From Patescibacteria group bacterium (GTDB lineage: Bacteria; Patescibacteriota; Minisyncoccia; UBA6257; 02-FULL-45-10c): a DNA stretch of 52,494 nt. The notes beneath the pieces were generated by a model. The model was not told where the DNA came from and made no database searches. It saw nothing but the letters and a program-made list of their open reading frames with translations. Every line of letters begins with the position of its first letter. The stretch's first letter is position 1. The translations under genes and the position numbers were made by a program. The stretch covers positions 1-52,494 of the forward strand of contig JAHILT010000017.1 in NCBI GenBank assembly GCA_018896875.1, in the 5' to 3' direction. This document shows positions 9,852-47,538 of the stretch, piece after piece.

Positions 9852-9918
9852 GATTCTTTGGTTTGTAAATTATCCTAATTCTTCTCATTGCTAATCACTA
9901 GTGGCTAGTCGCTAATCC

Positions 9919-31255: not shown

Positions 31256-31337
31256 CTGTTTATTTTTATTTCATTATTTGGCATAAGATAATCATAACAA
31301 ATTACTAAATTAATTTTAAATAAGTTACGAGAATATA

Positions 31338-31771
31338 GATTTAAGATTTAAGATTTAGGATTTAGGAATGATTTAGATTTAGAAATGAGTCCTTGTAATA
31401 ATTTGTGCGTACAATTAGCTTGTTCGGCTATTTGTTGTAAATCAGTTTGTTTTAAATATCCGATGTCTTTAGCGATTAATAATTGATTTTTTAATTCAAT
31501 TAAAGATCCTTGAGAAATATAATAAAATTGTATTTTTTCTTTATAACCCTGCCTTCCAAACCCCTCGGCGATATTACTAGTGATTGAAATAGCTGCTCGA
31601 CGCATTTGATTGGTTAATGAATATAATTCATCTTTTGGGAATTTTTTGGTTAATTTATATATCATTATTATTAATTTATGTCCTTCTTGCCATACCTTTA
31701 AGTCGGTAAACGATTTTATTTTAGTTTTTCTTTGTTCGAAATCCATATTCTTAAATCTTAAATCATAAATC
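31338..31771. repeat. Inverted GATTTA(A/G) heptamer arrays flanking the four-helix-bundle gene
   Basis: 4 copies at 31338-31365; 3 reverse-complement copies ((T/A)TAAATC) at 31751-31771. Confidence 0.8.
31348..31746 (-). CDS. Four helix bundle protein (23S rRNA-IVP / bAvd-like family)
   Basis: SFTDLKVWQ, FPKDELYSLTNQMRRAAISITSNIAEG, GSLIELKNQL. Confidence 0.93.
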   Translation of the reverse strand: MDFEQRKTKIKSFTDLKVWQEGHKLIIMIYKLTKKFPKDELYSLTNQMRRAAISITSNIAEGFGRQGYKEKIQFYYISQGSLIELKNQLLIAKDIGYLKQTDLQQIAEQANCTHKLLQGLISKSKSFLNPKS

Positions 31772-31780
31772 TTTTATCAT

Positions 31781-32539
31781 CTAATCTAGATGAGTTTCTA
31801 TAAAATCTTTTATTTCTATACTAAGTATAACAAATTCTTCATTTGTTTTTAACAGCTCGTTAGCAGCAAGTATAGCTGATACGGGATCTTCTCCAGCATT
31901 AGCGCCTTTTTCAAATATATTTTTTTTAATACTTAATAATTCAATTTCTTTTTTATGAATATTTAAGGCTAGTCTAGGTATTGTGATGTTGTATAAAGCA
32001 TCTATTGCATACTTGTACGCTTCTTTGATTTTTACAAAATCATAAATATCTAAGCTTTCCGGATTACTCATCATAGAAGCGGGCATTTTTTTACTAGCAG
32101 TGATTAAAATATTATTGAAAGAATTAAAATATTCTAGAAGAGCTTCTTTGTTATTATCTTCGGAAATTTTTAAAGAAGAATTGTCTATTTTGGGTCTAAG
32201 GCTTGCTGGATTAAAGTTTTTTTGGGCTTCTACAATTAAATCTTCAACCATTTTTTCCGGCGCTGGAGCGTTAATCATAGTTTCTCCGTCAATATTCTTG
32301 AGCCCTTCTAAATTTTTTTCAGCAATACCAGCGCTAATTTTTTCGGTCAAAGCATCGGTTAAATTTTTATTATTACTTGTTCCTATAAGTTCAATTTCTA
32401 CAGGATTATTCTCAATAACATTTTCAGTATTGCTTATTTTTGCTGGAGCTGGTGAATTAGAATTAGAGACAATTAAATAAGCTCCAGTCAGTCCGAGCCC
32501 TAAAATTAGAGTAGTTATTATGATTTTAAACACACTCAT
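31781..32539 (-). CDS. Membrane-anchored hypothetical protein
   Basis: N-terminal TM; NLT, IP...LNIH and DPV.A motifs. Confidence 0.7.
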   Translation of the reverse strand: MSVFKIIITTLILGLGLTGAYLIVSNSNSPAPAKISNTENVIENNPVEIELIGTSNNKNLTDALTEKISAGIAEKNLEGLKNIDGETMINAPAPEKMVEDLIVEAQKNFNPASLRPKIDNSSLKISEDNNKEALLEYFNSFNNILITASKKMPASMMSNPESLDIYDFVKIKEAYKYAIDALYNITIPRLALNIHKKEIELLSIKKNIFEKGANAGEDPVSAILAANELLKTNEEFVILSIEIKDFIETHLD

Positions 32540-32638
32540 TACTTATTATTATACAATAAACAATCAAGGATTTAAAATTAAAAATTAGGATATTCTGCCA
32601 TTTTTTCCCTGAAGTCAAATCGTCATTCTTATTCCCTC

Positions 32639-33439
32639 CTAAAGGAGGGGGATAATTTTGGCCAATTCTAGAATATTATTTATAGTCAAATTCTGTGGTC
32701 TACAATTTTCTGGAATATTAAGAGATCTTAATATATTAATTAAATCTTCTTTTGAAAATTCTGTGCCATTTTTTAAATTATTAAGAAGCGTTTTTCTTGG
32801 TTGTTTAAAAATAATATGAATAAGTTTATAATAGTTTTTTGTTTCTAATTCATTAGTAGCTAATGTTTTAGTGACTAGTTTTATAATCGCAGAGTCTACT
32901 TTCGGCGCAGGACTAAAATCTTCGGATTTAAGTTTAAAAATTATTTCTGGATTAGCCCAAAATTGTGTAGCAGCGGACAAAAGATTTGTTTTGTTATGTT
33001 GGGCACAAATTCTTTCTGCAACTTCTTTTTGAATCATCAATACCGTTAAACTTGGCTTGTTTTTTAATTCGCTTAATATTCTTAACAATTTCCCAGTAAT
33101 ATAATAAGGAATATTGCCTACAATCTTGTAATTAGAATTAGGAATAATGAATTGTGAATTATGAATGAGATTGGGCAATATTCTCAATATATCTCCTTGA
33201 ATAATCTTAATATTTTTGTCTAACGTAAACTTTTGTTGAAGAAGTTGGGCGAGTCGAGCATCTTTTTCAATCGCAATTATTCTTAATTCGTGATTCTTAT
33301 TTCTTAATTCATTAGTTAGTTCTCCATGTCCTGAACCAATTTCAATAATAGTTTCGTTTGGCTTGATATCTAAAGTCGCAATAATTTTAGTAATTGCTGA
33401 TTTATTTTTAAGAAAATGTTGTCCAAGACGTTTGTTCAT
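32639..33439 (-). CDS. rsmA: 16S rRNA dimethyladenosine transferase KsgA/RsmA
   Basis: LGQHFL, IEIGSG.G.LT, IEKD, VGNIPYYIT, MIQKEVAER, F.PAPKVDS, RK.L.NNL. Confidence 0.96.
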   Translation of the reverse strand: MNKRLGQHFLKNKSAITKIIATLDIKPNETIIEIGSGHGELTNELRNKNHELRIIAIEKDARLAQLLQQKFTLDKNIKIIQGDILRILPNLIHNSQFIIPNSNYKIVGNIPYYITGKLLRILSELKNKPSLTVLMIQKEVAERICAQHNKTNLLSAATQFWANPEIIFKLKSEDFSPAPKVDSAIIKLVTKTLATNELETKNYYKLIHIIFKQPRKTLLNNLKNGTEFSKEDLINILRSLNIPENCRPQNLTINNILELAKIIPLL

Positions 33440-33473
33440 AAATATAGGTTGTAATTTTAATTTAAATTATTAA

Positions 33474-35267
33474 TTATTCTATATACATATATTCATCATC
33501 CCAATCTGATTGTATTTTGCCATAGCTTGTAATTTTTGAAAAATCAATTAACTCCTTTGGTATTTCCCCTAGAAATCTTGAAGGAATATTGTAAAAACTA
33601 ATAAATAATTTTTTTTTGGCGCGAGTCATTGCCACGTACATAAGCCTTCTTTCTTCTTCTATCTCTTCTGGATAAAAAATAGATTGTTCGTGCGGTAAAA
33701 GTTTTTCATTACAACCAACTATAAAAACATTATCAAACTCCAATCCCTTAGAAGCATGGATAGTCATTAATTTTACAGCTTTTGTTAAAAGTTTTGGTTT
33801 ACCGTCAGAAGCCGACATTAAGCTTACTTTTTCTAAAAATTCATAAGGATCTTTATGCTGAGAAGCAAAATTAATTAATTCTTTTATATTCTCCATTCTT
33901 TCGGATGGATTTTTAAAGCTTTTGGTTAGGTAATTTGTATAATCTATTTTTTTAAAAAAATAATTTATAATTTGAACCAAAGTTAATTCTTTGGCTAATT
34001 TTGGAAGTTCTTGAATTATTATTTTACTTTTAATTTTTCCAAAACTTTTATTAATTCTTTCAATACTGGCGTCATCTTTTGGATTAAAAGCGTAGCGTAA
34101 TCCAGCAATTAAGTCTTTAATTTCTTTTCGGGCATAAAATTTAAGTCCACCGTAAATTTCATAAGGTATTTTATTTTGAATAAGTGTCTGTTCTAGCGCT
34201 CGAGATTGCGCGTTGGTTCTGTATAAGACAGCAACTTCTCCAATTTTTTCTTTATTGCGAATAAGTTTTACTATATTTGCGCATATTCCCCGTGCCTCTT
34301 CTTCGGAATTTTGATAAGTAGTTATTTTTATAAGATCGCCTTCTTTATTATTGGTCCATAATTTTTTTGGCTTTTGTAGTTTATTGTATGCGATAAGATT
34401 AGAAGACGCCGAAACGATAACTGAAGTTGAGCGGTAGTTTTGTTCTAATTTTATTATTTTTGCCCTTGGCCAATCTTTTTCAAAATTTAAAAAATTTCTA
34501 AAGTCTGACCCCCTGAATTTATATATACTTTGCGCATCATCTCCAATAGCGAAAACATTTTGATATTTTCCAGCGAGCAGTTTTATTAATTGATATTGAG
34601 CAGTGTTAATATCTTGATATTCATCTATTAATATATATTCATATTGATCTTGATATTTATTTAAAACGCCCGATTTTTCTTTAAAAATTTTAACGACTTT
34701 AGTGATAAGATCATCAAAATCAAAAGAATTACTTTTTTGTAAATTATTTTCATATTCTTTATAAATTTCTAATGACTTGATTTCATAATTGTCTTTTGGG
34801 CTTAAATTGTCTACATCTATTAATTTACTTTTAATTGAAGATATTTTTTTCAAAATAACTAAAGGATTAAATTTTTCCTTAGAAAGATTTTTATTTTTAA
34901 GAATTTTTTTAATTAAACTCAAAGAATCTTTATCGTCAAAAATGGTGAAATTTTTTTCGCGCTTGAAATAGGTGATTTCAGTTTTTAATATTTTTGCTCC
35001 GAAAGAATGAAAAGTACCGACAAACAACTTATTTTCAAGGGTTTGTGATTCGTATGAATCAAAAACCCGCCTTCGCATTTCATTAGCTGCTTTGTTCGTA
35101 AAAGTTATGGCAATTATTTTTTCTGGAGACACGTCTGACTTTAATAATCGTATCAATCTATTTACTAATGTTTTGGTTTTGCCAGATCCGGCACCAGCCA
35201 CGATTAATAATGGACCATTTTTATGTTTTGTAGCTTCTTGTTGTTTTTCATTGAGTCCGTTTTCCAT
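33474..35267 (-). CDS. UvrD/PcrA superfamily 1 DNA helicase (start moved to MENGLNEKQ)
   Basis: AGAGSGKT, ITFTNKAA, DEYQD, GDDAQSIY.FRG, LEQNYRS, LYRTN, TIHASKGLEF, EERRL.YVAMTRA. Confidence 0.95.
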   Translation of the reverse strand: MENGLNEKQQEATKHKNGPLLIVAGAGSGKTKTLVNRLIRLLKSDVSPEKIIAITFTNKAANEMRRRVFDSYESQTLENKLFVGTFHSFGAKILKTEITYFKREKNFTIFDDKDSLSLIKKILKNKNLSKEKFNPLVILKKISSIKSKLIDVDNLSPKDNYEIKSLEIYKEYENNLQKSNSFDFDDLITKVVKIFKEKSGVLNKYQDQYEYILIDEYQDINTAQYQLIKLLAGKYQNVFAIGDDAQSIYKFRGSDFRNFLNFEKDWPRAKIIKLEQNYRSTSVIVSASSNLIAYNKLQKPKKLWTNNKEGDLIKITTYQNSEEEARGICANIVKLIRNKEKIGEVAVLYRTNAQSRALEQTLIQNKIPYEIYGGLKFYARKEIKDLIAGLRYAFNPKDDASIERINKSFGKIKSKIIIQELPKLAKELTLVQIINYFFKKIDYTNYLTKSFKNPSERMENIKELINFASQHKDPYEFLEKVSLMSASDGKPKLLTKAVKLMTIHASKGLEFDNVFIVGCNEKLLPHEQSIFYPEEIEEERRLMYVAMTRAKKKLFISFYNIPSRFLGEIPKELIDFSKITSYGKIQSDWDDEYMYIE

Positions 35268-35301
35268 GTATGATATTATAACCGTATTAAAACTAAATTG
35301 A

Positions 35302-35598
35302 ATCCCACACATAACTTACACTGATTATGTATTGCGTTTATTTATTACAATCGTTAAAAAACAAAAGTTTATATGTGGGTTGTACATCTGATTTAAAAAA
35401 AAGATTATTAATACATAATCAAGGAAAGTCATATCATACTAAAAAATATATGCCATGGAAATTAATATATTGTGAAGCTTATATCTCAAAAAAAGATGCT
35501 TATAGTCGCGAGCAATCGTTAAAGTTATGCGCTCAAGGATTACGTCGCCTTAAAGAAAGGCTTAATAATTCGTTGGTTGTGTAAGTTATGTGTGGGAT
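35302..35598. mobile_element. 297-bp cassette: GIY-YIG gene bounded by perfect 20-bp inverted repeats
   Basis: ATCCCACACATAACTTACAC (35302-35321) / GTGTAAGTTATGTGTGGGAT (35579-35598). Confidence 0.7.
35327..35584 (+). CDS. Small GIY-YIG nuclease (UPF0213-like)
   Basis: VYLLQS...LYVGCTSDLKKRL..HN.G, PWKLIY.E, A..RE..LK. Confidence 0.9.
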   Translation: MYCVYLLQSLKNKSLYVGCTSDLKKRLLIHNQGKSYHTKKYMPWKLIYCEAYISKKDAYSREQSLKLCAQGLRRLKERLNNSLVV

Positions 35599-36628
35599 GA
35601 AAAATTTTTTATATTGGTTGCAAGAGCATAGAATGACCGTAATCCCGGTTATTTTAGTCATTGTTATTTCAATTTTTAACATAAAGCTTCTTGCTTACTT
35701 AGAAAGACCATGGGGTGTTTTTAGCGCTAATGATTTTGCTTTTGCTGAGAGTCCTTATGAGAATAAAGAAAGTTTTAATGAATTAGATAGCGCTACAAAT
35801 AGTTTAGCATCAACATATAGTATTGATTATTTTAATACAGAAGAACAAATTAATTTTATTGTGATAGATAGCGGCTATCTTCTTAATAAAAATAATCCTT
35901 TAAGCGATATTTTGCCGTCACGAGATGGACTCCTTATATATAAAGTACAAAAAGGAGATAATCTAGCGAAAATTGCGACTAATTTTGGCATTTCTTTAAA
36001 TACTATTTTGTGGGCCAACAGAGATCTCAATTCTAATCTTCTTAAGATTGGGCAAGAAGTAGTAATATTGCCAGTATCAGGAGTTCTACATAATATACTG
36101 TTAGGAGATACGATAGAGTCTATATCCGAAAAATATTCAGTAAGTGTTAATAAAATTGTCGCGTATAATATTGGTTTGTCTCCGTCTAAATTAGAGTCAA
36201 GACAAACTATTATAGTTCCTTACGCCAAGCCATTACAAAGCTCGTCTATGGCTCAAAAATTACCTAATTATCCTGGCTATTTTGCTATCCCAACAACTGG
36301 ATGGAATTGGGGAATACTTCATAATTATAATGCGGTAGATATTGCCAATGCTTGTGGCACTTCTGTTTATGCCTCAGCTGAAGGCCTAGTGATTGAAGAG
36401 CTTCCTTCTGGTTGGAACGGAGGGTTTGGAAGATATATTTTAATTGAGCATCCAAATAATACTAAAACTAGATATGCGCATATGCAAAAAAATACAGTTT
36501 CTGTTGGTGATTATGTTTTACAAGGAGATTTGGTTGGTTATATAGGAAATACTGGACTCACTCATGGCCCTACTGGTTGTCATCTTCATTTTGAAATAAT
36601 TGGGGCTAAGAACCCCTTCGCTAAATAG
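35597..36628 (+). CDS. LysM + M23 peptidase domain protein (start uncertain)
   Basis: Two LysM repeats (YKVQKGDNL..IA; GDTIESIS); M23 motifs H..VDIA, YAH, GNTG, HLHFE. Confidence 0.9.
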   Translation: MKNFLYWLQEHRMTVIPVILVIVISIFNIKLLAYLERPWGVFSANDFAFAESPYENKESFNELDSATNSLASTYSIDYFNTEEQINFIVIDSGYLLNKNNPLSDILPSRDGLLIYKVQKGDNLAKIATNFGISLNTILWANRDLNSNLLKIGQEVVILPVSGVLHNILLGDTIESISEKYSVSVNKIVAYNIGLSPSKLESRQTIIVPYAKPLQSSSMAQKLPNYPGYFAIPTTGWNWGILHNYNAVDIANACGTSVYASAEGLVIEELPSGWNGGFGRYILIEHPNNTKTRYAHMQKNTVSVGDYVLQGDLVGYIGNTGLTHGPTGCHLHFEIIGAKNPFAK

Positions 36629-36653
36629 TTTATTGACGTGATTTTTAAAATAA

Positions 36654-36683
36654 ACCCCCACACTTATATATAAGTGTGGGGGT
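36654..36683. repeat. Perfect 30-bp CCCACAC-family palindrome; may also act as terminator
   Basis: ACCCCCACACTTATATATAAGTGTGGGGGT between convergent genes. Confidence 0.8.
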
Positions 36684-36700
36684 GGGTTGGAAGGAAAACA

Positions 36701-37357
36701 TTAGGCGTTGTTATCTAATACCTCATTTACAACGTCTCCTAATGTGAATCCTTTTTCGGGCATCTTTTTCCCTAGGCGAGCAATAACTTTTTCAAAAAGA
36801 GCTTCAATAATTTCTGCTTGCTTTTTTTGAAGTCCGTTCCCTTTCTTTAGTTTTGCTATCAGATGTTGGACGCCGAGTATTCCTTCGTCGTCTGTAACAG
36901 GAAGTCCTAGTCCGTAAGGAGATATAATATGTATAGGTCCAGGAAGTTCTTCTCTGTTTTTGTATCCAAGAAGTTTCCATCCATAAACATATTCATCTGC
37001 GCTTTCTTTAAGGCTACGTCCTAGCCCTAAGAAGCCCCTTATCTCTTCACCAAGATAATAGAATATCTGTGGTCCTGCTTTGTATCTGATGTAAGCAAGT
37101 TGGACAGACTGAGCCCATTCACGCCGATATTTACTAGGAATTTCTTTGAGCGCGTCAACAAATTGTTTGCGCTTTTCTTCGGCTTGTTTACCTAGCTCTT
37201 TTTCTGTCGGCTGTTTTTTGGCTTTTGCCCATTTGAAAGCTCTGTGCGCTTTCATAGCATTAATAGCTAATATAATAAGTTTTTTGAACTTATCAAGGAT
37301 AGCTATTTTTTCAAGTATCACTCGTTCTGCTCGCATTTCTTCAATTTTCTTATTCAT
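36701..37357 (-). CDS. Hypothetical helical protein (start moved to MNKKIEE after GGAGG SD)
   Basis: Long ORF; SD GGAGG and TTGACT-17bp-CATATT upstream. Confidence 0.65.
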   Translation of the reverse strand: MNKKIEEMRAERVILEKIAILDKFKKLIILAINAMKAHRAFKWAKAKKQPTEKELGKQAEEKRKQFVDALKEIPSKYRREWAQSVQLAYIRYKAGPQIFYYLGEEIRGFLGLGRSLKESADEYVYGWKLLGYKNREELPGPIHIISPYGLGLPVTDDEGILGVQHLIAKLKKGNGLQKKQAEIIEALFEKVIARLGKKMPEKGFTLGDVVNEVLDNNA

Positions 37358-37519
37358 TTGTCTACCCTCCAATATTAAGTTTTTTTGAAGTTTTAACTTC
37401 AGTGTTCTGTTGAATAATATGTCATAAAATATTATAAAAGTCAATAAGAGGATAAAATTAGATTGACTGTGTTAGTTATTTTATATTAAACTAATGATAA
37501 TTAATTAATTTTTATTATT

Positions 37520-37780
37520 ATGATAGAAGAAAAAGATTTACTTAAATTAAAAACAGACTTAGAAAAACGTCAAAAAGAATTGGAAGAAAAAATTGAAAAA
37601 TTAAGCAAGCCTGTTGAGTTCGGAGATGATACTGAAGGAAGTTCTTCTGATGAGGAGTCTGATGAAACAGAAGAATTTGGCAATAATCTTGCTGTGGCTG
37701 AAATTCTTAAAAAGGAATTAGTGGATATTAAGAGCGCGTTGGAAAGAATTGAGAAAGGAGAATATGGCGAACATCTCTAA
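37520..37780 (+). CDS. DksA/TraR-like coiled-coil protein lacking the C4 zinc finger
   Basis: Acidic tip DEESDETEE and L.DI.SAL.RI..G.YG; stops immediately after YG. Confidence 0.7.
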   Translation: MIEEKDLLKLKTDLEKRQKELEEKIEKLSKPVEFGDDTEGSSSDEESDETEEFGNNLAVAEILKKELVDIKSALERIEKGEYGEHL

Positions 37781-39302: not shown

Positions 39303-39354
39303 TTTTTATTTTTTCAATTTCCAATTTACGAATATACAAACAATGTGTGACTTA

Positions 39355-39779
39355 GTTCCCCTCCTTTAGGAGGGGTTAGGGGAGATTTAAAATAATGCAT
39401 CTTTCATATAATAAAAATCTTAAAAAATTAAGTCGTCAGTTGCGTGCTAATTTTACTGACGCTGAAAAATTACTTTGGTCAAAAATAAGAAAAAAACAAA
39501 TAAAAAATTATCAATTTTTTAGACAAAAGCCAATTGGAAATTATATAGTTGATTTTTATTGCGATAAAGCAAGGTTAGTAATTGAAATTGATGGTGGGCA
39601 ACATTATGAAGATAAAAATATGAGAGATGATAAAATTAGAGAAGTTTTTTTAGAAAAATAAGGATTAAAAATAATGAGATTTACAAATTTAGATGTTTTG
39701 AAAAATACATACAATGTAGTAGAAAAAATTTACAATGAAATTTAAAATCCACCCTAGCCCTCCTTTAAAAGGAGGGAAT
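39355..39779. mobile_element. DUF559 cassette bounded by inverted CCCTCCT-hairpin repeats
   Basis: Left 39355-39388 reverse-complements to AAATCTCCCCTAACCCCTCCTAAAGGAGGGGAAC, similar to right 39745-39779 AAATCCACCCTAGCCCTCCTTTAAAAGGAGGGAAT. Confidence 0.65.
39395..39745 (+). pseudogene. DUF559 / Vsr-like endonuclease with in-frame TAA at 39659-39661
   Basis: LR...TDAE..LW, F.RQ.PIG.YIVDF, LVIEIDG..H; the frame continues GLKIMRFTN..V after the stop. Confidence 0.85.
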
Positions 39780-39829
39780 AAGAATAGATAAAATTTTTCT
39801 AAAATTAATTAGAAATTAGAAATTTTCTG

Positions 39830-41059
39830 TTATTCAGTATTTCCTTCAGGATTCATGTCTTCTGTTTTTTCTGGAGAATCTGCTATCCCTCCTTCTTGGA
39901 CTTCTTCTGGTCTAGATTGAGATCTTACATCTATTTTCCATCCAGTAAGTTTGGCAGCTAAACGAACATTTTGTCCTCCTTTTCCAATCGCTAAACTTAA
40001 TTGATCTTCAGGAACGAATGCCTTAGCTTCCCTACGTTCTAAAACTTCAACAGAATTTATTTTGGCAGGAGAAAGAGAATTAGCGATAAATTCTTCTGGA
40101 CTATCAGACCATTCAATAATATCAATTTTTTCTTGTCCTAATTCATTACTTACCGACATTACTCTAGTTCCGCGTTGTCCTACGCAAGAACCAACAGGAT
40201 CAATTCCTTCGGCGTTAGAAACAACAGCTATTTTAGTACGGTTCCCTGGCTCTCTGGCTATAGCTTTTATTTCAACTGTTCCGTCGCTAACCTCTGGAAC
40301 TTCTATTTGAAATAATTTTTTTATAAATTCAGGATGAGACCTAGAAAGTATTATACCTGGAATTCTTGATTCTTCTTGAACTGCCAATAAATAAAATCTC
40401 ATTCTATTCCCTGGTTTGTAATGTTCTCCAGGGATAGTTTCGTTGGAAAACATTATCCCGACAGCTCTTCCAAGATCCACAAAAGTATTTCCTCGTTCAA
40501 ATCTTTGAATAACGCCACTTATAATTTCTCCTACTTTGTCTTGGTATTCTTTAATTATAGATCCCCTTTCTGCTTCTCTTAATTTTTGAAGTACAACTTG
40601 TTTAGCAGTTTGAGCAGCTATTCTTCCAAAGTCATCATGAATTTCTAATGGAAATTCTAATTCTTCTTCTAGTTTTATTTTTTTGTTTATTTTCTTAGCA
40701 TCTTCAATAAGAATATGACGATCTGGATTATAGCGAGGAATCTTTTCTTCGTCATCATCTATGGTCTCTTTTGAAGGCAAAATTTCTTTTTTCTTAGACT
40801 CATGGTCGGAATCACTCAACTCAAATTCTTCTATAATCTTTACAGTATTTTCGTCTTCTACAGTTTTAATTTGCCAAAATTTTAACGTACCTGTTTTTAA
40901 ATCAAATTTGCATTTTATAATTTCGCTTCTTTTGCCAAATTCTTTTTTGTAAGCCGCGGCAATAGAACTTTCAATTGCAGTTAAAATTTGTTCAGAATCA
41001 AGTCCTTTTTCTTCTGCTATTTGATCAACAGCTTTTTTAATTTCTTTTAAGTTAAACAT
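39830..41059 (-). CDS. nusA: Transcription termination factor NusA
   Basis: FGRIAAQTAKQV, LSRS, AREPG.RTKIAV, EKIDII, LSLAIGKGGQNVRLAAKLTGWKID. Confidence 0.97.
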   Translation of the reverse strand: MFNLKEIKKAVDQIAEEKGLDSEQILTAIESSIAAAYKKEFGKRSEIIKCKFDLKTGTLKFWQIKTVEDENTVKIIEEFELSDSDHESKKKEILPSKETIDDDEEKIPRYNPDRHILIEDAKKINKKIKLEEELEFPLEIHDDFGRIAAQTAKQVVLQKLREAERGSIIKEYQDKVGEIISGVIQRFERGNTFVDLGRAVGIMFSNETIPGEHYKPGNRMRFYLLAVQEESRIPGIILSRSHPEFIKKLFQIEVPEVSDGTVEIKAIAREPGNRTKIAVVSNAEGIDPVGSCVGQRGTRVMSVSNELGQEKIDIIEWSDSPEEFIANSLSPAKINSVEVLERREAKAFVPEDQLSLAIGKGGQNVRLAAKLTGWKIDVRSQSRPEEVQEGGIADSPEKTEDMNPEGNTE

Positions 41060-41187
41060 AGTAACAGTAATTAGCCACTAGCCACTAGTTATTGCGAGTG
41101 GAGTGCGGCATTTTTATAATTTAATAACTCGACTTAGCTAATTGTATTTAATATTTTTTTTACGACTTTATTAGTTATACACTAATT

Positions 41188-41260
41188 TTGAAATGACTCC
41201 GCATTGCGGAGCCATTTCAATCATTAACGTCATTATACGAATAGACTCACTAATTGTCAA
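41188..41260 (-). promoter_or_regulatory. nusA promoter and 5' leader hairpin
   Basis: Perfect TTGACA-17bp-TATAAT (41260-41232), then hairpin TTGAAATGGCTCCGC aat GCGGAGTCATTTCAA (41220-41188). Confidence 0.75.
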
Positions 41261-41270
41261 ATTTTTTCTA

Positions 41271-41319
41271 ACCCACTCCTCAATCCTCCCTCTTCTGGAA
41301 GGGGGAGGAAGGTGGGGGG
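41271..41319. repeat. Degenerate CCCTC-hairpin repeat, DUF559-flank-like
   Basis: ACCCAC..TCCTCCCTCTT ctgg AAGGGGGAGGA..GTGGGGGT. Confidence 0.5.
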
Positions 41320-41389
41320 TTATTTTCTTTCTCCTTTCCTTTCTTCTTGCTAATACCTAGTGGCTAGTACCTAATCCCTAGTGTCTATT

Positions 41390-44300
41390 TCATTCTTCTA
41401 CTATCACTTCAGCTTCAAATGATTTAGAAACACTTGAATTATTACAAGTAAGAATATATGTAGTGGTTTGATCTGGAGAAACTCGTATTGAACCATAAGT
41501 ATTAATTTCTTCGTTAACGCCTGGTTCCAAAGAACACCATTCCGCATATTCACATTTCCAGGAAAGTTCAGAATCAGTAATAAAGGCAGATTGTTTATCA
41601 ATAGTTGGAGGCAAGGCAGTGAAAGAACAAGTAGGAGCTTCAACAACTCTTAATGCAATTGATTTTATTGTTGTTCCTAATTCTCCAACACAAGTTAAAG
41701 TATAATTGAAATTCTTTTTTACAGAGCTAACAAATCTTTGAATTCCTTCAAGCTCTTTTTCTCCACCCCAAGATCCCGATGCTTCGCAAGAATCAGCGTT
41801 AGCAACGCTCCATATTAGATTGTATTCAGCTGGCGCTCCTATAATTTGTTCCGAGGCATCATTTCCATCTATTTTAAAGTTAATAATTGGGGCTGTATCT
41901 GGAGGAGGAGGTCCTTCAACAGTTATATCTACATAAGATATATTGGAAAATTTCTTATCGTTTTGCAGTAATCTAAAAATACCGTATCTATAAGTTCCAG
42001 GTTCATTATTAAATGTAAAGTTTCCCAAACGAACATTGCATTCTTTGGCGTTTTCTGGACTTTTAACCATTCCTTTAAATTCTGCGGGATTTCTTGCTAA
42101 GTCTATATTGTATAAACAATAACCACTATTAGTTAAAAGAGAACTCCATCCTTCTGTAGCATCTCTACTAGTTTTTCCGTCATTGTTTATGTCTTGATTG
42201 ACTTTCACATAAAGATCAGTTGGTTCGCCGCGAGCCACAGTAATATCTTGAGAATAAGTTATTTGGTCCGTGCTAATAGAAGCCTCAGCGACAGGCATTT
42301 GCTCTTCTGATAATTTATCTTTTCTTCCTAATAAATTATCAATCAATCCGCTTCTACTATCTCCTCCTGTTCCTCCTACAACATTTACAACAACCGTATC
42401 AGATCCTGATCCAGGGCAGTAAAGAGAATAAGTATACTTGCCATTTTTCTTTAAAGTTATATCTTCGGAACCAGCTTTAAGTTTAACCTTAAGCCAAGAG
42501 CCAGTGGCTAAACAATATTTGTCTAAATTCCAAGAGAGCGTAAATTTAGACTGGCTTTCAATCGTAATAGGCCCATCAACGCCATTGACTTTAAGATCTA
42601 TAGTGTCTTTTTCTGGTAAAACCTCTTGTTCTCTAAATGGTTTAGGAGGTGGCGGAGGGGGCTCAGGTTCTTCCCATTCAGGAAGTTCAATACTGGCGCT
42701 TTTAATTTCTATTCTTACAGTTTTTGTTTTAGACGCGCCATTAAAACCTATCGCTGTTAAGGTATATGTAGTGCTTATGGCAGGGCGAACATTTGCGGTT
42801 CCGCTTAGCGAATTGCCGACATTATGATCAATAGAAACTTTTTCAGCATCAGCAACTTCCCACGTTAAAGTAGCGAATTCGTCTTTTTCAATTTCTGTTT
42901 TGTCTGTGCTGAATTCAACTTCTGGAAGTGGCATATCTTCAACATTTCCTACTAAAATGTTGAGTTTTCGCATAGCTTCTTCAGGCCCACCTTCGCTTTC
43001 TGGAAATTCACTATTATTCACTCTAAGCACGAAAGTGTATGTTCCTGTCCTAAGGGAGCTAGTGTTTATTTTTAACGGATTGTCTCTGTTGTTTTTAATA
43101 TCCGAAGAGCTTAATAACTTTTCATCTCCAATTCCTTTTTTGAGATAAACAGATATATCAAGGGGGCCGCTATATTTATTATATTCAACTTTAACGTCCC
43201 ATTCTAATTCAAAAGTTTTTCCAATAGGTATCTGCCATTCAGTAGTTGAATCTACAGGCATAGGTATTAAATCTTTATTGTCTTCTACAATTTCAAAATC
43301 ATTTATTTCAGGATTTGGAAGAACGTCTCTAAGATCTTTCACTGAAATTTTAATTGGTTCGAAAGTTGCTTCTTCAAGCCCGTTGTCGCTTGCAGGAAAT
43401 TCATCATTATTTACTTTAATTGTGAAAGTGTATATTCCTGTTTCAAAAGAACTAGTATCTATTAGTAATGGTTCGTTTTCATTATTTTTGATTTTTGAAG
43501 AAGCTACAAACTTGCTTTTTTCAATTCCTGTTTGGCTAAAAATATCTATTGAAAGAGGACTGCCGTTTTCGTCTCCATATTCGTCATTTTCAACATCCCA
43601 TTTTAATTCAAAAGTTTTTCCCTTAATTATTTGCCATTTAGACTTTGAATTAGGTATCGCGCTGATATCTGTCAAGTCTTCATTTCCTTCTGTAATAATT
43701 TTAAAGTCTTTTATTTCTGGATCTGGAGGAATGTCCCCGACGAATACTTTTATTTCTTTTTCTTCTTTACCGCGTTCAGGAGAATTTTTTCCATCTAGTA
43801 CTCCATAGCATGAAAACGTGTATATATATATTCCTCTCTTGACATTTTCAAAAGGAAAATCGTCTGATTTCGGAGTAATTTCTCCTGTTCTTACGTTAAT
43901 TCCAACTTCGCCAACTTCTATTTTTCTTTCAAACGAATTAGATGGGCTGGTTGCATTGTCTCCTGATAAATCACAACGCGCGGATGGATTAGAAAGACCC
44001 CACTTTAATATAAGTTTATTATAGGCGTCAATTTCAAATCTATCATTTTCAGAATTTAGCGTTGCATTTGTTGATAAAGACATTGAATTTTCATCAGATC
44101 TGAGTCCACACCCGTCAAATTTCAATGGCGGATAATTGCTTGGATAAAAAGTGCCGTAGACATCACGTGGTGGTGTGTGATAATTAATGTAACACCAAAT
44201 TGTTATAGAATTAGCGCTTTTTGATGTATTTATTTCTCCAGGCAAACAGGATCTTATAATTTCCGTTTTTATTTTGTCGTAAATTCGGGGTATTGAAAAA

Positions 44301-44767
44301 TAGACTGGAAGATTGACAGCTTTTATTTGATGGTGTGTGGTACCAAAACTTTCATAATCATTTTTCTTGCATTCAGCAGGACTATGCGCTGCGCCAGGAT
44401 TGCGCAATAAAGATGCCAAATAGTTTCCATCAGCTATTGTGCTCCAGTTGGGTATTGTGCTATCAATTGCCTTCCATAATTCTTCAAGATTAGAAGCAAG
44501 AGCATAGGGTATTTTTATAGTGTCTAAACTTAGTCTTATTTGTGTAATTTTGTTCCAGTTAGGAAAATCCGATTGATTAAAAATACAATACTTATTTTCT
44601 TCTAAATCATTAAGTTGCGCGAAACTTCCGTTTTCTTTAAAGGCAGCACAATGTATTATATTACCATCTTCATCTATTGCATTTTCGTAGCCTGCAAGGC
44701 TATCTTGGGCAAATAAAAAAACAAATCCAAAAGTTATCAATAATAAAAATTTAATTTTGTTATTCAT
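41390..44767 (-). CDS. Large exported surface protein with tandem Ig-like repeats
   Basis: Signal peptide; two ~130-aa near-duplicate repeats (PEI.DF.I ... WQI..GKTFEL.WDV ... TG.YTF..VNN.EFP.S); TL.W...C...TYTL.C modules; poly-Pro linkers. Confidence 0.8.
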   Translation of the reverse strand: MNNKIKFLLLITFGFVFLFAQDSLAGYENAIDEDGNIIHCAAFKENGSFAQLNDLEENKYCIFNQSDFPNWNKITQIRLSLDTIKIPYALASNLEELWKAIDSTIPNWSTIADGNYLASLLRNPGAAHSPAECKKNDYESFGTTHHQIKAVNLPVYFSIPRIYDKIKTEIIRSCLPGEINTSKSANSITIWCYINYHTPPRDVYGTFYPSNYPPLKFDGCGLRSDENSMSLSTNATLNSENDRFEIDAYNKLILKWGLSNPSARCDLSGDNATSPSNSFERKIEVGEVGINVRTGEITPKSDDFPFENVKRGIYIYTFSCYGVLDGKNSPERGKEEKEIKVFVGDIPPDPEIKDFKIITEGNEDLTDISAIPNSKSKWQIIKGKTFELKWDVENDEYGDENGSPLSIDIFSQTGIEKSKFVASSKIKNNENEPLLIDTSSFETGIYTFTIKVNNDEFPASDNGLEEATFEPIKISVKDLRDVLPNPEINDFEIVEDNKDLIPMPVDSTTEWQIPIGKTFELEWDVKVEYNKYSGPLDISVYLKKGIGDEKLLSSSDIKNNRDNPLKINTSSLRTGTYTFVLRVNNSEFPESEGGPEEAMRKLNILVGNVEDMPLPEVEFSTDKTEIEKDEFATLTWEVADAEKVSIDHNVGNSLSGTANVRPAISTTYTLTAIGFNGASKTKTVRIEIKSASIELPEWEEPEPPPPPPKPFREQEVLPEKDTIDLKVNGVDGPITIESQSKFTLSWNLDKYCLATGSWLKVKLKAGSEDITLKKNGKYTYSLYCPGSGSDTVVVNVVGGTGGDSRSGLIDNLLGRKDKLSEEQMPVAEASISTDQITYSQDITVARGEPTDLYVKVNQDINNDGKTSRDATEGWSSLLTNSGYCLYNIDLARNPAEFKGMVKSPENAKECNVRLGNFTFNNEPGTYRYGIFRLLQNDKKFSNISYVDITVEGPPPPDTAPIINFKIDGNDASEQIIGAPAEYNLIWSVANADSCEASGSWGGEKELEGIQRFVSSVKKNFNYTLTCVGELGTTIKSIALRVVEAPTCSFTALPPTIDKQSAFITDSELSWKCEYAEWCSLEPGVNEEINTYGSIRVSPDQTTTYILTCNNSSVSKSFEAEVIVEE

Positions 44768-45013
44768 TTTTTAAAAATTTAATTCGGAAACAAATTATTT
44801 TTTTATCTTTAAAGTAATATCCGAATTTTTATTATTTAATGTATTTATAGATTATCATTTTTTTGAATGTGATACCAACCATAAAAATATAAATTTCTAA
44901 AGAAGGCTTATCTTTTCTCTTTTTCTCTTTTCCTCAATTCTTCTTTCTCTATTTTTGTTTTTCTATTCTTATTTTTGCATTTATATCTATATATATAAAT
45001 TTAGATAATCATT

Positions 45014-45743
45014 TCCATAGTCTCACGCGTGAGACTATGGACTTTTTTAAAAATCACCCATTTTTTAATTATTTTACTTTTTAAGTAATTATATTCTTTA
45101 GTCTCACGCGTGAGACTAAAGAACCTTTAAGGTTTTTAACTGTCTACTTTATTGTTTTTTTAATTACCTTTTTATCAAGTTTTCGATTATCCAGTTTTTA
45201 CTTTTTACTAAGTAGCTATCCTATCCCCATGGTCTCACGTGTGAGACCATGGGGATAATGTAAATTCTAAAGCTATAAAATATTTAAAATATTTTCTGCG
45301 CCTTTATATTTTCGCTGATAAACTCTTATTTTTTTATGTTTTGTTAGAGTTGAATATTTTCTTTTTCTGTTGGGATTTTTACTATATCTTCTACCTTCTA
45401 AGATATCTTTTGTCTTACTTATTGTATTCGCCGAAACATTTAGAATTTTTTTAATATCACAATATTTTTTATTTTGATTTAATAGTTTCATTGTCGCTAT
45501 TCTTCGAAAAATAATACATTTTTCATAATCAGTTAAAAACTTATCAAAGAACTTATTTAAACTATCAATAGAATTAATATTTTTGAATTCTCTTAATAAT
45601 TCATTAATAATTTCTTTCTCAATAAACTTATCTAGTTTTTTATTAATTGAAGACTTCATATTAAATTGATTGCTATTTTTTATATCAATAATAATTATAT
45701 CACAATAAACCTTACTTAGTCTCACGCGTGAGACTAAGTAAGG
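45014..45743. repeat. Four long palindromes sharing core GTCTCACGCGTGAGAC around the TrpR-like gene
   Basis: 45014-45041, 45094-45123, 45222-45257 (one central mismatch), 45710-45743; related copies at 3677-3690 and 5456-5475. Confidence 0.9.
45273..45659 (-). CDS. TrpR-like (YerC/YecD family) helix-turn-helix protein (start moved to MKSSINKK)
   Basis: FLT.YE...I.RR.A...LL....Y..I...LNVS..TISK matches the TrpR/YerC pattern; TGaTATAAT upstream. Confidence 0.75.
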   Translation of the reverse strand: MKSSINKKLDKFIEKEIINELLREFKNINSIDSLNKFFDKFLTDYEKCIIFRRIATMKLLNQNKKYCDIKKILNVSANTISKTKDILEGRRYSKNPNRKRKYSTLTKHKKIRVYQRKYKGAENILNIL

Positions 45744-45901
45744 CGTTCAATGACTAAATTTTTAATAACTGATTATTATTTCATTTCTCTCTGCTTGTCT
45801 GTGTGCGTGGTCGAGAATCTAGTTTTTCTGTTTATCGTTAGAAAATTAGTAATTTATCGTTTAGGGTTTGTTTGGGCCAATTAGAAATTATTAATTAGAA
45901 A

Positions 45902-46101
45902 CCCCGCACCAGAAACTTCGCCGGGCAGTGAGAATTCAATTGCCCCCGCTTAGCGGGGGCAGTAATTGAAATAAATCACTATCTGGAAATAAAAATAGTT
46001 AAGTAATATAAAAAAGTTATATAATTATTGATTGAATTTCTACTGACCCGGTTCGTTTCGGTGCGGGACTAGTCCAGCACTGAGCCCTGCTCTAGTGCTG
46101 G
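45902..46101. repeat. Nested inverted-repeat element plus adjacent hairpin
   Basis: CCCGCACC.GAAAC / GTTTCGGTGCGGG outer arms; CCGGGCAGT..AATTCAAT / ATTGAATT..ACTGACCCGG; inner TGCCCCCGCT t AGCGGGGGCA; CCAGCACT/AGTGCTGG. Confidence 0.7.
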
Positions 46102-46112
46102 GTTGTTTTAGT

Positions 46113-46547
46113 CTATATATTCTCATAATGTCTTATTTCGGAATTTTTGAATAGTTCTTTAAGATTAAGATCTTTGGGATTTTGAAGGTAAATTTCTATA
46201 GCAATTAAATCTATTTGCCATCCTTTTTCTTCATCTATTAATTCTGGATGAGAATTTGCATAAAGAAGCACAGTTCGTTTTACTTTTTTAAATTTAGCTG
46301 GATTAAGATTGTTTTCTGGTGAAAAACAATCTGTGAAACATTTTTCGTTTTGTTTCACAGAAGTGTGAAACATTTTTAATGCTTTAACTTCCACAAATAC
46401 TAGAGTTTTATCCTTTTTTCTACATATAACATCTATCTCTCCCCATGGATATCGAACATTTCTTTCAATTATCTTATATTTTTTATCCACTAAGTACTGG
46501 CAAGCGATATCTTCTCCTATTTGACCTATTCTAATATGGTTTGGCAT
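46113..46547 (-). CDS. yraN: YraN (UPF0102) family PD-(D/E)xK nuclease-like protein with repeat-derived insert
   Basis: G..GEDIA..YL....Y.I.ERN....GEID, LVFVEVK, IDLIAI, HYENI. Confidence 0.88.
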   Translation of the reverse strand: MPNHIRIGQIGEDIACQYLVDKKYKIIERNVRYPWGEIDVICRKKDKTLVFVEVKALKMFHTSVKQNEKCFTDCFSPENNLNPAKFKKVKRTVLLYANSHPELIDEEKGWQIDLIAIEIYLQNPKDLNLKELFKNSEIRHYENI

Positions 46548-47011
46548 AATTTTTTAATTTTAAATAATTATTTTACAAATAAGTTTAACATAAATTTATA
46601 GTGTGAGACATGTTTAATGTTTCACGAATTACATTAATTACATTTTACGTATAAGACTATACACAATGTTTGTCGTGAAACATATCGATATGTTTTTTGT
46701 ATGTTTTAAGTTATTTATGGGCAACATGGATTGTTTCACGAATTACATTAGATACATTTTATATATGAATTATTTATAATGTTTGTCGTGAAACATATTC
46801 GTGCGTCTATATAATAGAATAATACAATTTTTCCATGAATTAGATTATTAATAATTGAGTATAACTTGATGTTTCACGTTTTACATAATAATTATTTTAA
46901 GCATAAACTTGTAACCGATGTTTCACAAATTGTTTCACATTCGGCAATTTGTTTGTTATTAGCTTGCCGAATTAATTAAAAAGCGTGGAACATTTTTGTT
47001 CCACGCTTTTT
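46331..47011. repeat. Cluster of TGTTTCAC/GTGAAACA (parS half-site-like) repeats
   Basis: Ten half-sites between 46332 and 46939; duplicated ~65-bp unit (46618-46685, 46732-46798); two TGTTTGTCGTGAAACA (14/16 to the parS consensus). Confidence 0.8.
46978..47011 (-). terminator. Intrinsic terminator (bidirectional form)
   Basis: AAAAAGCGTGGAACA tttt TGTTCCACGCTTTTT. Confidence 0.75.
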
Positions 47012-47050
47012 AAGGGTTAGTTGATTAGAAAAGGTTAGGGGTAGTCTAGA

Positions 47051-47329
47051 TTAATTTTCTTCTTTCTCTATTTCTGATCTGATATATTCCATGGCTTCTT
47101 GTTCATTTTCTTTATATAATTCTATCAATTCGTTTTGTCGGTTTACAAACAAATCTCTAAATTTAGAAGCATATTTTTTTATCCAATCCTTTCTTATATC
47201 TTCTAATGATAATGATTTGTCCTGGTTTGCCATTAGGGAATGATATTCAATAACGCTTCTTTCAATTATTATAGCGTGTTCTTCCGGAGATAATTCTTTT
47301 TTTGGTTTTTTAAATTCTGGCGTTTTCAT
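47051..47329 (-). CDS. Small hypothetical protein
   Basis: 92-aa ORF between tRNA-Val and a terminator; W..KYA..FR helix motif. Confidence 0.6.
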   Translation of the reverse strand: MKTPEFKKPKKELSPEEHAIIIERSVIEYHSLMANQDKSLSLEDIRKDWIKKYASKFRDLFVNRQNELIELYKENEQEAMEYIRSEIEKEEN

Positions 47330-47383
47330 TTTTTTATTGTTTGCTATTAATTATAACTCTTCTTTTATTATTAGTTGTTTGTT

Positions 47384-47458
47384 TGGTGCGCGCTGAGGGA
47401 ATCGAACCCCCGACCTACTCGGTGTAAACGAGTCGCTCTGCCACTAAGCTAAGCGCGC
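47384..47458 (-). tRNA. tRNA-Val(TAC), CCA encoded
   Basis: GCGCGCT acceptor stem, ACTCG-TTTACAC-CGAGT anticodon arm, GGTTCGATTCC T-arm. Confidence 0.96.
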
Positions 47459-47506
47459 TAAAAATTTACTTTATAATAGCAATATTATTTTTTAATATCA
47501 ATATAA

Positions 47507-47538
47507 AAATCCCACACTCATTTTTGAGTGTGGGATTT
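47507..47538. repeat. CCCACAC-family hairpin overlapping a stop codon
   Basis: AAATCCCACACTCA tttt TGAGTGTGGGATTT. Confidence 0.75.

Follow-up and report, generated by a model that had tools for sequence, protein, structure and literature searches.

Four candidate gene-plus-repeat cassettes, including a start-codon-associated GIY-YIG element and a DUF559 hairpin family, in the conserved backbone of a Patescibacteria contig

Five small genes, each lying among copies of a distinct repeat, were studied between positions 31,338 and 47,011 of contig JAHILT010000017.1 from a Patescibacteria group bacterium (assembly GCA_018896875.1): a four-helix-bundle gene, a GIY-YIG nuclease gene, a DUF559 nuclease gene, a TrpR/YerC-like gene and yraN. 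The window analyzed was the whole 52,494-bp contig (C2) of a 789,834-bp genome, G000 (31.6% GC, 89 contigs, 97%-complete). An earlier note, made from the letters of this DNA, had proposed that all five were minimal selfish modules, each consisting of a gene and its own repeat. In kind, this proposal was supported for four of the genes; it failed for yraN, which showed conserved synteny and parS-like sites. The reading that we consider likely is that four cassettes, each a gene with its own repeat, were inserted in a conserved backbone and that the yraN repeats are parS. More tentatively, and with distinctly less confidence, two unrecognized minimal mobile elements may be present among these cassettes. 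One would be a GIY-YIG element targeting start codons, which would insert at the ATG(A) of rpoC, ssb, gatB, clpP and rpmJ and would have given rise to non-autonomous copies of ~135 nt, found at some 2-3% of genes in this 0.79-Mb genome. The other would be a REP/REPIN-like hairpin family mobilized by DUF559 nucleases, a second origin of REP-type repeats, independent of RAYT.

Gene families were assigned by Pfam, with NCBIfam models as a second naming; together with direct reading of the sequence, these assignments confirmed the five genes and their repeats at the positions given by the earlier note. The repeats also exceeded chance, since none of 100 dinucleotide-preserving shuffles of the window reached the counts observed for the GTCTCAC palindrome (5 vs 0.00 expected), TGTTTCAC (11 vs 1.13), CCCTCCT (11 vs 2.56) or CCCACAC (7 vs 0.70). 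Gene-less copies elsewhere in the window were found, as it had described, for the CCCTCCT, CCCACAC and palindrome families; the heptamer family needs a caveat, as the other arrays of the window use different units. The proposed co-variation of repeat and protein was recovered, with repeat sequences tracking the gene lineage in relatives and in other phyla, and so were solo copies linked to a gene, given that GIY-YIG and DUF559 have gene-less derivatives with the same ends across the genome. Gene-flanking inverted repeats were evaluated with one fixed scoring, in which a score of at least 13 was taken as strong. In the background, this score was reached by 15 of 705 gene proxies of G000, and the top of that list was formed by these same modules.

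Relatives were compared by finding NusA, fetching ~20 kb around it and mapping the window proteins onto those regions. The order FtsH-Nudix-p147-p92-YraN-p1125-NusA-ComM-p86-p247-M23-UvrD-KsgA-p252-p535 was conserved, over the extent of the contigs available, in G004, G003 and G002, which belong to the same genus (amino acid identity of NusA to these orthologues, 74-79%). The four-helix-bundle, GIY-YIG, DUF559 and TrpR-like genes were all absent from the orthologous sites within this conserved order, in agreement with the empty sites that the earlier note had suggested looking for. The genes p252 and p535, which flank the four-helix-bundle gene here, adjoin each other in G002 and have 160 bp between them in G004; the UvrD/M23 gap consists of short spacers without a GIY-YIG gene in G004, G003 and G002; the ComM/NusA gap measures 86 bp in G002 and holds other inserts in G003 and G004; and yraN abuts p1125 in G004, with no TrpR-like gene between them. 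A conserved housekeeping backbone would have received four unrelated single-gene cassettes by insertion. Each would comprise a single small gene, for a nuclease or a DNA-binding protein, between inverted repeats particular to its lineage. The architecture and boundaries of the cassettes, their empty sites, gene-less derivatives, target rule and recurrence across phyla are shown; the proteins would, by our interpretation, act on or move their repeats. This mobilizing role is most plausible for the GIY-YIG and DUF559 proteins and least so for the four-helix-bundle protein.

The convergent NusA-ComM spacer was seen to differ species by species. It holds the DUF559 gene here (39303-39829), ~1.3 kb of other genes in G003 (L023 7511-8809), a 2.3-kb membrane-protein gene with a long hairpin in G004 (L021 9081-11439) and nothing in G002.

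The GIY-YIG element and the solo hairpins of its repeat family were located as follows.
35298-35324, forward strand: short frame upstream of GIY-YIG, TTG AAT CCC ACA CAT AAC TTA CAC TGA
35302-35321, forward strand: left terminal inverted repeat (TIR) of the GIY-YIG element, ATCCCACACATAACTTACAC, read directly
35327-35584, forward strand: GIY-YIG nuclease gene (Pfam PF01541, E 6.6e-16), 85 amino acids, catalytic domain only (residues 1-66)
35579-35598, forward strand: right TIR of the element, perfect 20-nt inverse of the left one, read directly
36655-36682, unstranded: solo CCCACAC hairpin CCCCCACAC..GTGTGGGGG, between convergent genes
47509-47536, unstranded: solo CCCACAC hairpin ATCCCACAC..GTGTGGGAT, at the 3' end of p147

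Four copies of this gene were present in G000, with 81-93% amino acid identity. The DNA homology among them runs exactly from ATCCCACACATAACTTACAC to its inverse, the flanks being unrelated, and one diverged copy carried matching changes in both TIR arms. The NCBIfam model for group I intron endonucleases scored the protein at 20.3 bits vs a cut-off of 56. In the predicted RNA fold, the TIR stem closes the element (z -5.09; 0/100 shuffles as good). Small GIY-YIG genes were detected in 30 of the 31 related genomes, with 1-10 matches each. Strong flanking repeats were obtained at 9/20 and 4/13 evaluable loci of relatives and at 51/71 evaluable metagenome loci, several of which are near-duplicates (the junction counts given below were de-duplicated, the 51/71 count was not). 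Furthermore, the repeat sequence tracked the protein clade, with compensatory pair changes at positions 6 and 18-20. Insertion of the gene into the loop of a pre-existing hairpin was ruled out because the empty UvrD-M23 site of G004 has no hairpin. Among public contigs from four DNA runs, covering 34800-36100, neither a junction skipping the element nor an empty allele was found, such contigs being unable to show rare variants. They break at the left TIR, and their loose ends match the flanks of other GIY-YIG copies; contig X6, from another study, spans the left junction unchanged. No RNA run was listed among the public runs containing this DNA.

The element also occupied a defined position relative to host genes. 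Downstream, the M23 peptidase gene (35597-36628; M23/LysM domains) takes its ATG from the last two bases of the right TIR and G35599, and it has a second in-frame ATG at 35588; after the GIY-YIG stop the sequence reads ATG TGT GGG ATG and continues in the host open reading frame (ORF). Of the 20 distinct junction pairs in the closest clade, 16 have a long host ORF whose ATG is supplied by the end of the right TIR. The last letters of the left flank, which follow Shine-Dalgarno-like purines, are ATGA in 11 pairs, TTGA in 2 and a one-letter variant in 3. Seven of ten such host ORFs matched Pfam from profile position 1-3; the families were L36 (1-38 of 38), ClpP, RadC, nucleotidyl transferases and an epimerase. 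The start of the short upstream frame lies in the left flank, which reads TTGA here and ATGA in the majority of other copies, and the stop of the frame precedes the GIY-YIG ATG by 2 nt. Across copies, this frame (MNPTHNLH-stop) ends 2-8 nt before that ATG or is fused to it in frame, the MNP(T/P)HN.. frame with its stop being present in L250, L234 and L243 and the in-frame fusion in L225, L232 and L240.

Copies without the gene occupied the same kind of position. The right-end pattern GTTATGTG[TG]GGGATG was found at 23 sites in G000, of which 20 open a host ORF, vs a baseline of 1203/6588 ATGs opening at least 60 codons. A left arm was present 61-294 nt upstream, mostly ~124 nt, in 19/23. An alignment of eleven of these sites gave a gene-less element of ~135 nt, flanked by ATGA and with a terminal repeat of 20 nt; these copies have the outer 13 nt of the terminal repeat in common with the gene-bearing elements, and they make up the small dispersed families found when the genome was compared with itself. 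Nine of ten host ORFs at gene-less copies matched Pfam (RpoC, SSB, GatB, YchF, ClpP, a Mur ligase and others). Additionally, metagenome contig L234 has a filled rpmJ site, of which the rpmJ start of G000 (ATGAAAGT) appears to be the empty counterpart. The architecture, copy boundaries, target rule and empty sites of the GIY-YIG element are shown.

The ATGA found on the left in 11/20 junctions is remade on the right through the last AT of the TIR; the same pattern is expected from an ATGA carried by the element, and the word may be either a target-site duplication or part of the element. We propose that the GIY-YIG element (~300 bp) would be a transposon-like family, with autonomous copies encoding the 85-amino acid nuclease and ~135-nt gene-less copies, both placed at host start codons in the order host Shine-Dalgarno sequence-ATGA, element, (AT)GA-host ORF. 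The initiation signals of the host would translate the nuclease, by way of the short stop-restart frame or of the in-frame fusion. The right end of the element would restore the host ATG, and therefore even essential genes would tolerate the insertion. The 20-bp terminal stem may place the two ATGA copies next to each other and thereby let translation either start again or run across the element; this is how host genes might remain expressed. The GIY-YIG protein itself would be expected to cut or move the ends of the element.

Several related sequences were also observed. In metagenome contig L225, a 48-nt mini copy consisting of the repeat ends only lies in tandem after a full element and is bracketed by ATGA..ATGA. 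The yraN gene of G004 (L021, G004:C3, ~4470-4500) contains a 30-nt in-frame insertion, the CCCACAC hairpin TCCCACACTTATACATAAGTGTGGGAT, which adds 10 residues, is bounded by a TTCA direct repeat and represents a palindrome within a coding region. A ~98-nt element at 3349-3446 of the window has ends (ACCCCCTCACCTAT..ATAGGTGTGGGGGT) that resemble the repeat of a GIY-YIG copy of G004 (L020); it is placed upstream of the reverse-strand gene at 1929-3305, 44 nt from the start of that gene. Two distant copies of the gene were seen as well: one between 108-bp direct repeats of 99% identity (G000:C24:7888-8400), which seem to hold the 5' part of a tRNA and are followed by a full tRNA-like sequence, and another with an internal TAG (C26:42809), after a tRNA 3' end and a tyrosine recombinase gene.

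The DUF559 gene lies between two inverted copies of a hairpin unit.
39358-39388, forward strand: left unit, consisting of hairpin CCCCTCCTTTAGGAGGGG and tail TTAGGGGAGATTT, its end 6 nt from the ATG
39395-39745, forward strand: DUF559 (Vsr-like PD-(D/E)xK) frame, first ORF 39395-39661 (Pfam E 2.4e-26)
39745-39784, reverse strand: right unit, AAAATCCACCCTAG plus hairpin CCCTCCTTTAAAAGGAGGG plus AATAAGAA, inverted relative to the left unit
9748-9790, reverse strand: solo B-type CCCTCCT unit (at 9761), gene-less
32626-32655, unstranded: solo CCCTCCT hairpin (at 32634), at the ksgA 3' end

Each unit consists of a C-run/G-run hairpin followed by a TTAGGGnGATT tail, ~40 nt in all. In G000, 31 hairpin units were found, forming two ~40-nt families, with one gene-less A+B doublet (C26:26754-26824). 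A second copy of the gene (C48) is 97-99% identical from the left hairpin onward and has a different flank. The frame is interrupted by an in-frame TAA at 39659-39661, missed by the earlier note; the family match continues to 39742, and the TAA aligns with a Leu of a homologue. The second copy shares this TAA, and therefore the family is probably no longer autonomous in G000.

The expansion of the hairpins coincided with the gene. Among the 31 related genomes, the DUF559 gene was present in two, G000 and, weakly, one other, and the hairpin counts were 31 in G000, 1 and 3 in two genomes and 0 in the other 28. In many phyla, 80 loci with DUF559 homologues (46-67% identity) were collected; the same kind of unit adjoins the start of these genes and, in inverted orientation, their stop. 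Strong flanking repeats were present in 36/76 evaluable loci. Of 67 loci examined for a C-run hairpin, 51 had one upstream, 48 had one downstream and 36 had both, and control windows 660-800 nt away contained it in 1 and 2 of 67. Five other genomes bearing DUF559 (1, 8, 7, 2 and 2 matches) contained, in the same order, 6, 13, 95, 29 and 94 hairpins, vs 0-1 for the reversed pattern. In one of these genomes, G035, at least 7 near-identical gene-less doublets had the same inner ends as its DUF559 gene, with a 12-nt spacer in place of the gene. The DUF559 gene between inverted units, with solo copies and gene-less doublets, would represent an arrangement like that of REP/REPIN with RAYT.

The third cassette contains a gene for a small helix-turn-helix protein.
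45273-45659, reverse strand: TrpR/YerC-like helix-turn-helix gene (Pfam Trp_repressor-like), 128 amino acids from the first ATG
45014-45041, 45094-45123 and 45222-45257, unstranded: three perfect palindromes, downstream of the TrpR-like gene
45710-45743, unstranded: 34-nt perfect palindrome, ~50 nt upstream of the TrpR-like ATG
3674-3693 (core 3676-3691), unstranded: solo GTCTCAC palindrome with 1 mismatch, gene-less

The Pfam match of this protein reached 32.7 bits vs a cut-off of 27 (E 7.7e-8). The four palindromes measure 28-36 nt and share the 16-nt core GTCTCAC(G/A)(C/T)GTGAGAC, while their outer arms are individual yet complementary. Among 15 related TrpR-like loci, nine had a palindrome of their own ~50-100 nt upstream and downstream, 11 had at least two and 2 had none; the core varied from gene to gene, its sequence changing with the protein. 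We propose that a TrpR-like gene with one palindrome ~50-100 nt upstream and 1-4 downstream would be a mobile, self-regulated cassette whose sites are bound by its own protein; the mobile self-regulated cassette is the most likely nature of the gene, and binding of the palindromes by the protein is likely.

A plain autoregulated repressor, whose palindromes would be the operators of a small regulon with nothing selfish about them, is a serious alternative, quite possible, though we would not put it first. The domain is a TrpR-type helix-turn-helix; perfect 16-20-bp palindromes stand at a constant ~50-100 nt upstream in 9-11 of the 15 loci and change with the protein; and three palindromes lie upstream of the neighboring 1125-amino acid gene. 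This explanation does not fit the absence of the gene from the G004 syntenic site, nor the four different contexts of its orthologues (49-55% identity) in G004, G005, G013 and G018. Moreover, the solo palindromes of G000 are not in promoters, standing instead between convergent genes or in 3' regions, and every palindrome is longer than an operator needs, perfect and provided with its own outer arms.

In addition, the G004 site of the TrpR-like gene was found to correspond to a gap in G000:C17, which holds a four-helix-bundle gene. The GC-rich stretch between the TrpR-like gene and yraN (45760-46110) shows nested long-range complementarity (CCCGCACC..GGTGCGGG and CCGGGTCAGT..ACTGCCCGG) and a hairpin (GCCCCCGC..GCGGGGGC). 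Rfam gave no match for this stretch at E <= 1, and it may represent a structured RNA that came with the insertion. Rfam searches at the gathering threshold (window) and at E <= 1 (44700-48500) returned tRNAs only, and no rRNA was found in the window.

The four-helix-bundle gene is enclosed by short tandem arrays.
31336-31383, reverse strand: distal inverted ~7-nt array (TTAAATC/CTAAATC units), overlapping the last codons and the stop
31348-31746, reverse strand: four-helix-bundle gene (PF05635, E 7e-39, 132.8 bits; TIGR02436, 124 bits), 132 amino acids
31749-31773, reverse strand: proximal array of GATTTAA units, adjoining the four-helix-bundle ATG

The two arrays pair with each other and enclose the ORF in both the minimum free energy and the centroid predicted folds. 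The PF05635 family was detected in 21/31 related genomes. At 30 four-helix-bundle loci of relatives, inverted short tandem arrays abut the ATG and the stop nearly everywhere, with a unit that differs nearly copy by copy, and 18 of the 30 had strong flanking repeats. Four of the five genome-wide matches of the word GATTTA[AG]GATTTA were at this four-helix-bundle gene.

The arrays themselves extend well beyond this gene. G000 contains 154 period-7 arrays of at least three units, of which 116 are intergenic, for only 3 four-helix-bundle genes, and heptamer arrays also flank FtsK and other housekeeping genes. Intergenic arrays of period 7 numbered 116 vs 25, 35, 28 and 10 for periods 5, 6, 8 and 9. 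In samples of 20-80 kb from each relative, the density of period-7 arrays per 100 kb was 18.8, 6.7, 1.7 and 0 where the gene was not found and 2.5, 8.3, 17.6 and 19.8 where it was present; the idea of the four-helix-bundle protein as the maker of the heptamer arrays was consequently not supported, their density not following the presence of the gene. Additionally, the fold energy was unexceptional (z -1.59; 8/100 shuffles as good). A repeat-mobilizing role is least plausible for this gene because the arrays are intergenic throughout the genome and their density is unlinked to it. As separate observations on the arrays, 73 of the 116 intergenic ones have a stop triplet on both strands, examples in the window lie at 3478-3501, 9890-9914, 11765-11808 and 39807-39824, and arrays with differing units directly follow the NusA stop in three genomes.

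The available part of the paper on Coxiella's intervening sequence (IVS) describes an S23p ORF whose bordering inverted repeats form a stem of 28 bp, a substrate of RNase III, and refers to the hypothesis that such sequences are mobile elements. The cassette resembles the 23S rRNA IVSs of Coxiella and Leptospira, for which mobility has long been suspected, in having a four-helix-bundle ORF inside a stem of complementary ends and a sporadic distribution. It differs from them in its place, between the protein genes p252 and p535 instead of in helix 25 or 45 of 23S rRNA, and in its arms, which are degenerate tandem ~7-nt arrays with a unit that differs in nearly every copy. A four-helix-bundle gene between pairing inverted arrays would thus represent the IVS architecture outside rRNA.

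The repeats near yraN led to a different conclusion.
46113-46547, reverse strand: yraN (UPF0102; Pfam E 2.9e-18, 66.5 bits), with three half-parS words inside at 46333-46372
46609-47011, unstranded: parS-like cluster, with TGTTTCAC words at 46618-46938
46978-47011, unstranded: terminator hairpin built of GTTCCAC half sites, within the parS-like cluster

The gene was syntenic in 4/6 of the relatives' regions compared (G004, G009, G012 and G007), and all four have a cluster of TGTTTCAC motifs on its upstream side, the word having drifted in G007. TGTTTCAC makes up one half of TGTTNCACGTGAAACA, which the accessible text of PMC7022226 gives as the chromosomal parS consensus, also reporting that ParB binds GTTTCAC and GTTCCAC half sites. 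Here, three 16-mers similar to TGTTTCACGTGAAACA were read, two of them (46667 and 46780) having 2 mismatches and one (46870) having 3, along with further half sites; the syntenic region of G004 contains four perfect 16-nt TGTTTCACGTGAAACA sites and 4 two-mismatch sites. A ParB is encoded in G000 (PF02195, 100.4 bits, C19:42763). The cluster is like a ParABS centromere in that the word is half a parS, perfect sites stand at the syntenic place of G004 and the genome has ParB. It is unlike a canonical parS cluster in that the full palindromes are degenerate here and many half sites are separate, three of them within yraN. On the evidence of gene order, yraN is a vertically inherited core gene outside any selfish module, and the TGTTTCAC words are predicted to be the ParB-binding parS and half-parS sites of a conserved centromere-like cluster. 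The probable centromere-like part of the chromosome would be marked by the "YraN repeats". For TGTTTCAC, a reading as the DnaA boxes of an origin was considered and dropped, there being no GC-skew switch within the 52-kb contig (of a genome in 89 contigs) and the G004 16-mer being exactly parS.

A number of observations weigh against insertion of four self-mobilizing cassettes. We infer mobility from comparisons only, and the related genomes are not independent samples. Strong repeats were found in just 13/33 GIY-YIG loci of relatives. Outside the closest clade, a host ORF stood at the right end in 7/24 repeat-bounded loci and an ATG before the left arm in 5/24, and 3 of the 23 right-end sites in G000 lacked a long ORF start. 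The short CCCACAC hairpins were uncoupled from the gene, G002 and G018 having gene and repeat with 0 hairpins and G004 having 3; their count was discarded as a proxy of GIY-YIG activity, the link being weak. Both DUF559 copies share the in-frame TAA, yet the gene was duplicated. The TrpR-like protein fell below the NCBIfam cut-off for YerC/YecD (TIGR02531, 23.6 bits vs 42.2), and its upstream palindrome is also expected of an ordinary autoregulated repressor.

One alternative explanation, which we regard as unlikely, takes the repeats as structures acting at the RNA or host level (terminators, RNase III stems freeing a cassette from host transcripts, or hairpins controlling translation) and the small genes as passengers of ordinary recombination, whose proteins do not act on the repeats. 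The CCCTCCT units are intergenic in 26/31 cases and co-oriented with transcription 18 vs 5, which fits a role in RNA. The hairpin after p147 has the same outer arms at the orthologous place in G004 and compensatory changes in its inner stem, and solo GTCTCAC palindromes lie between convergent genes. The terminal repeats of the GIY-YIG and four-helix-bundle cassettes fold into stems that enclose the ORF, IVS stems are RNase III substrates in the part of the Coxiella paper referred to above, and heptamer arrays are independent of the four-helix-bundle gene. This explanation leaves unaccounted for the common ends and ATGA start-codon position (20/23) of the gene-less GIY-YIG elements, the two-sided DUF559 unit that recurs across phyla and is rare in control windows, and the expansion of hairpins along with the DUF559 gene (31 here vs 0-3 in relatives). 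RNA-level roles and mobile cassettes are not exclusive of each other.

Movement in trans of the GIY-YIG and DUF559 elements, and of their gene-less copies, by a conventional transposase encoded elsewhere, with the nuclease as cargo or as a repair or defense function, appears somewhat less probable still. The earlier note had reported no transposase or integrase in the window, and indeed none of seven families sought genome-wide, among them Y1, TnpB, Ser-recombinase, Tyr-recombinase, rve and DDE_Tnp_1, matched this contig (the DDE families covered being rve and DDE_Tnp_1). Matches were present on other contigs (2 Tyr-recombinase, 3 rve, 1 of them above the cut-off, and 1 DDE_Tnp_1), and since some of these genes are of DDE type, mobilization in trans is possible. 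The doublets of G035 have an extra outer inverted repeat, which could belong to another transposon, and the stop in both DUF559 copies also suits this explanation. Nevertheless, the repeat families track the GIY-YIG protein clade over the strong metagenome and relatives' loci (51/71 and 13/33) of many genomes, and the DUF559 unit type accompanies its gene across phyla. Y1/RAYT (PF01797, 0 matches), TnpB and Ser-recombinase were not found in the 97%-complete genome, and the self-comparison gave no IS-like repeat of at least 1 kb.

Chance association in an AT-rich genome full of hairpins and heptamers (193 GC-rich perfect hairpins, 154 period-7 arrays) can be set aside, as 0/100 shuffles reached the observed counts in four tests, the backgrounds were low (15/705 genes; 1-2/67 control windows) and the same architecture recurs in independent genomes.

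Two further repeat elements were noticed. A ~290-bp element with TIRs of ~32 nt and no clear ORF lies at 48048-48338, between p147 and the Nudix gene; four more copies with 78-85% identity are found at C19:18980, C23:1081, C26:20651 and C26:51943. It had no Rfam match and looks like a MITE (a miniature transposable element with inverted repeats) or a structured RNA. A ~280-bp element with an 80-codon frame (MF.RINKKNF..) and flanking inverted repeats is present in 4 copies of 92-99% identity (G000:C18:33-298, C19:7759-8055, C29:8150-8427 and C84:5020-5238).

If the GIY-YIG and DUF559 proteins do mobilize their repeats, standalone GIY-YIG and DUF559/Vsr-like proteins would join the short list of prokaryotic DNA-mobilizing proteins, and a cause would be supplied for otherwise unexplained hairpin repeat families in many phyla. 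The 85-amino acid GIY-YIG would be, to our knowledge, the smallest self-mobilizing nuclease. How rpoC, ssb and rpmJ stay expressed with 135-300 nt of stem-forming sequence between the ribosome-binding site and the ATG becomes a sharp question of translation. The GIY-type element would also be a natural device to put a gene in line with a host gene without killing the latter. For annotation, ~20 start codons of G000 fall inside a repeat. In the open literature, subscription journals and supplements not being covered, no description was found of repeat-bounded small GIY-YIG genes or start-codon insertion (the accessible parts of PMC1564403 and PMC13285730 included), of DUF559 with flanking repeats (the accessible part of PMC3424549 included) or of heptamer arrays with four-helix-bundle genes.

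Compared with known mobile systems, the DUF559 family is like REP/REPIN-RAYT in that a short GC-rich hairpin stands in inverted orientation on either side of the gene, the genome also has many solo copies together with doublets lacking the gene, and the repeat copy number rises where the gene is present. It is unlike that system in that the gene encodes a DUF559 nuclease and not a Y1 transposase, there being no Y1 in G000, and in that the gene copies here are interrupted. Its units also have no GTAG or CGTC tag, which is reportedly a feature of REP elements.

The GIY-YIG element is comparable to the free-standing GIY-YIG homing endonuclease genes of phages (Seg, I-TevI type), being present or absent at syntenic sites and standing beside or between host genes on whose expression signals it would rely. 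It differs from them in the protein, which with 85 residues has the catalytic domain and no DNA-binding extension, and in being bounded by TIRs, having many target genes in one genome and forming non-autonomous derivatives. The protein resembles the standalone Slx1-like forms described in the portion of PMC1564403 that was available. The long and short copies share terminal repeats, as in TIR transposons with MITEs; unlike these, the element has no known transposase, its only ORF being the GIY-YIG gene. IS200/IS605 elements insert next to a fixed tetranucleotide, and a fixed 4-nt word (ATGA) likewise stands at the left junction here and is repeated at the right. Unlike in TIR transposons and IS200/IS605, the target of the GIY-YIG element is defined functionally, as the start codon of a gene.

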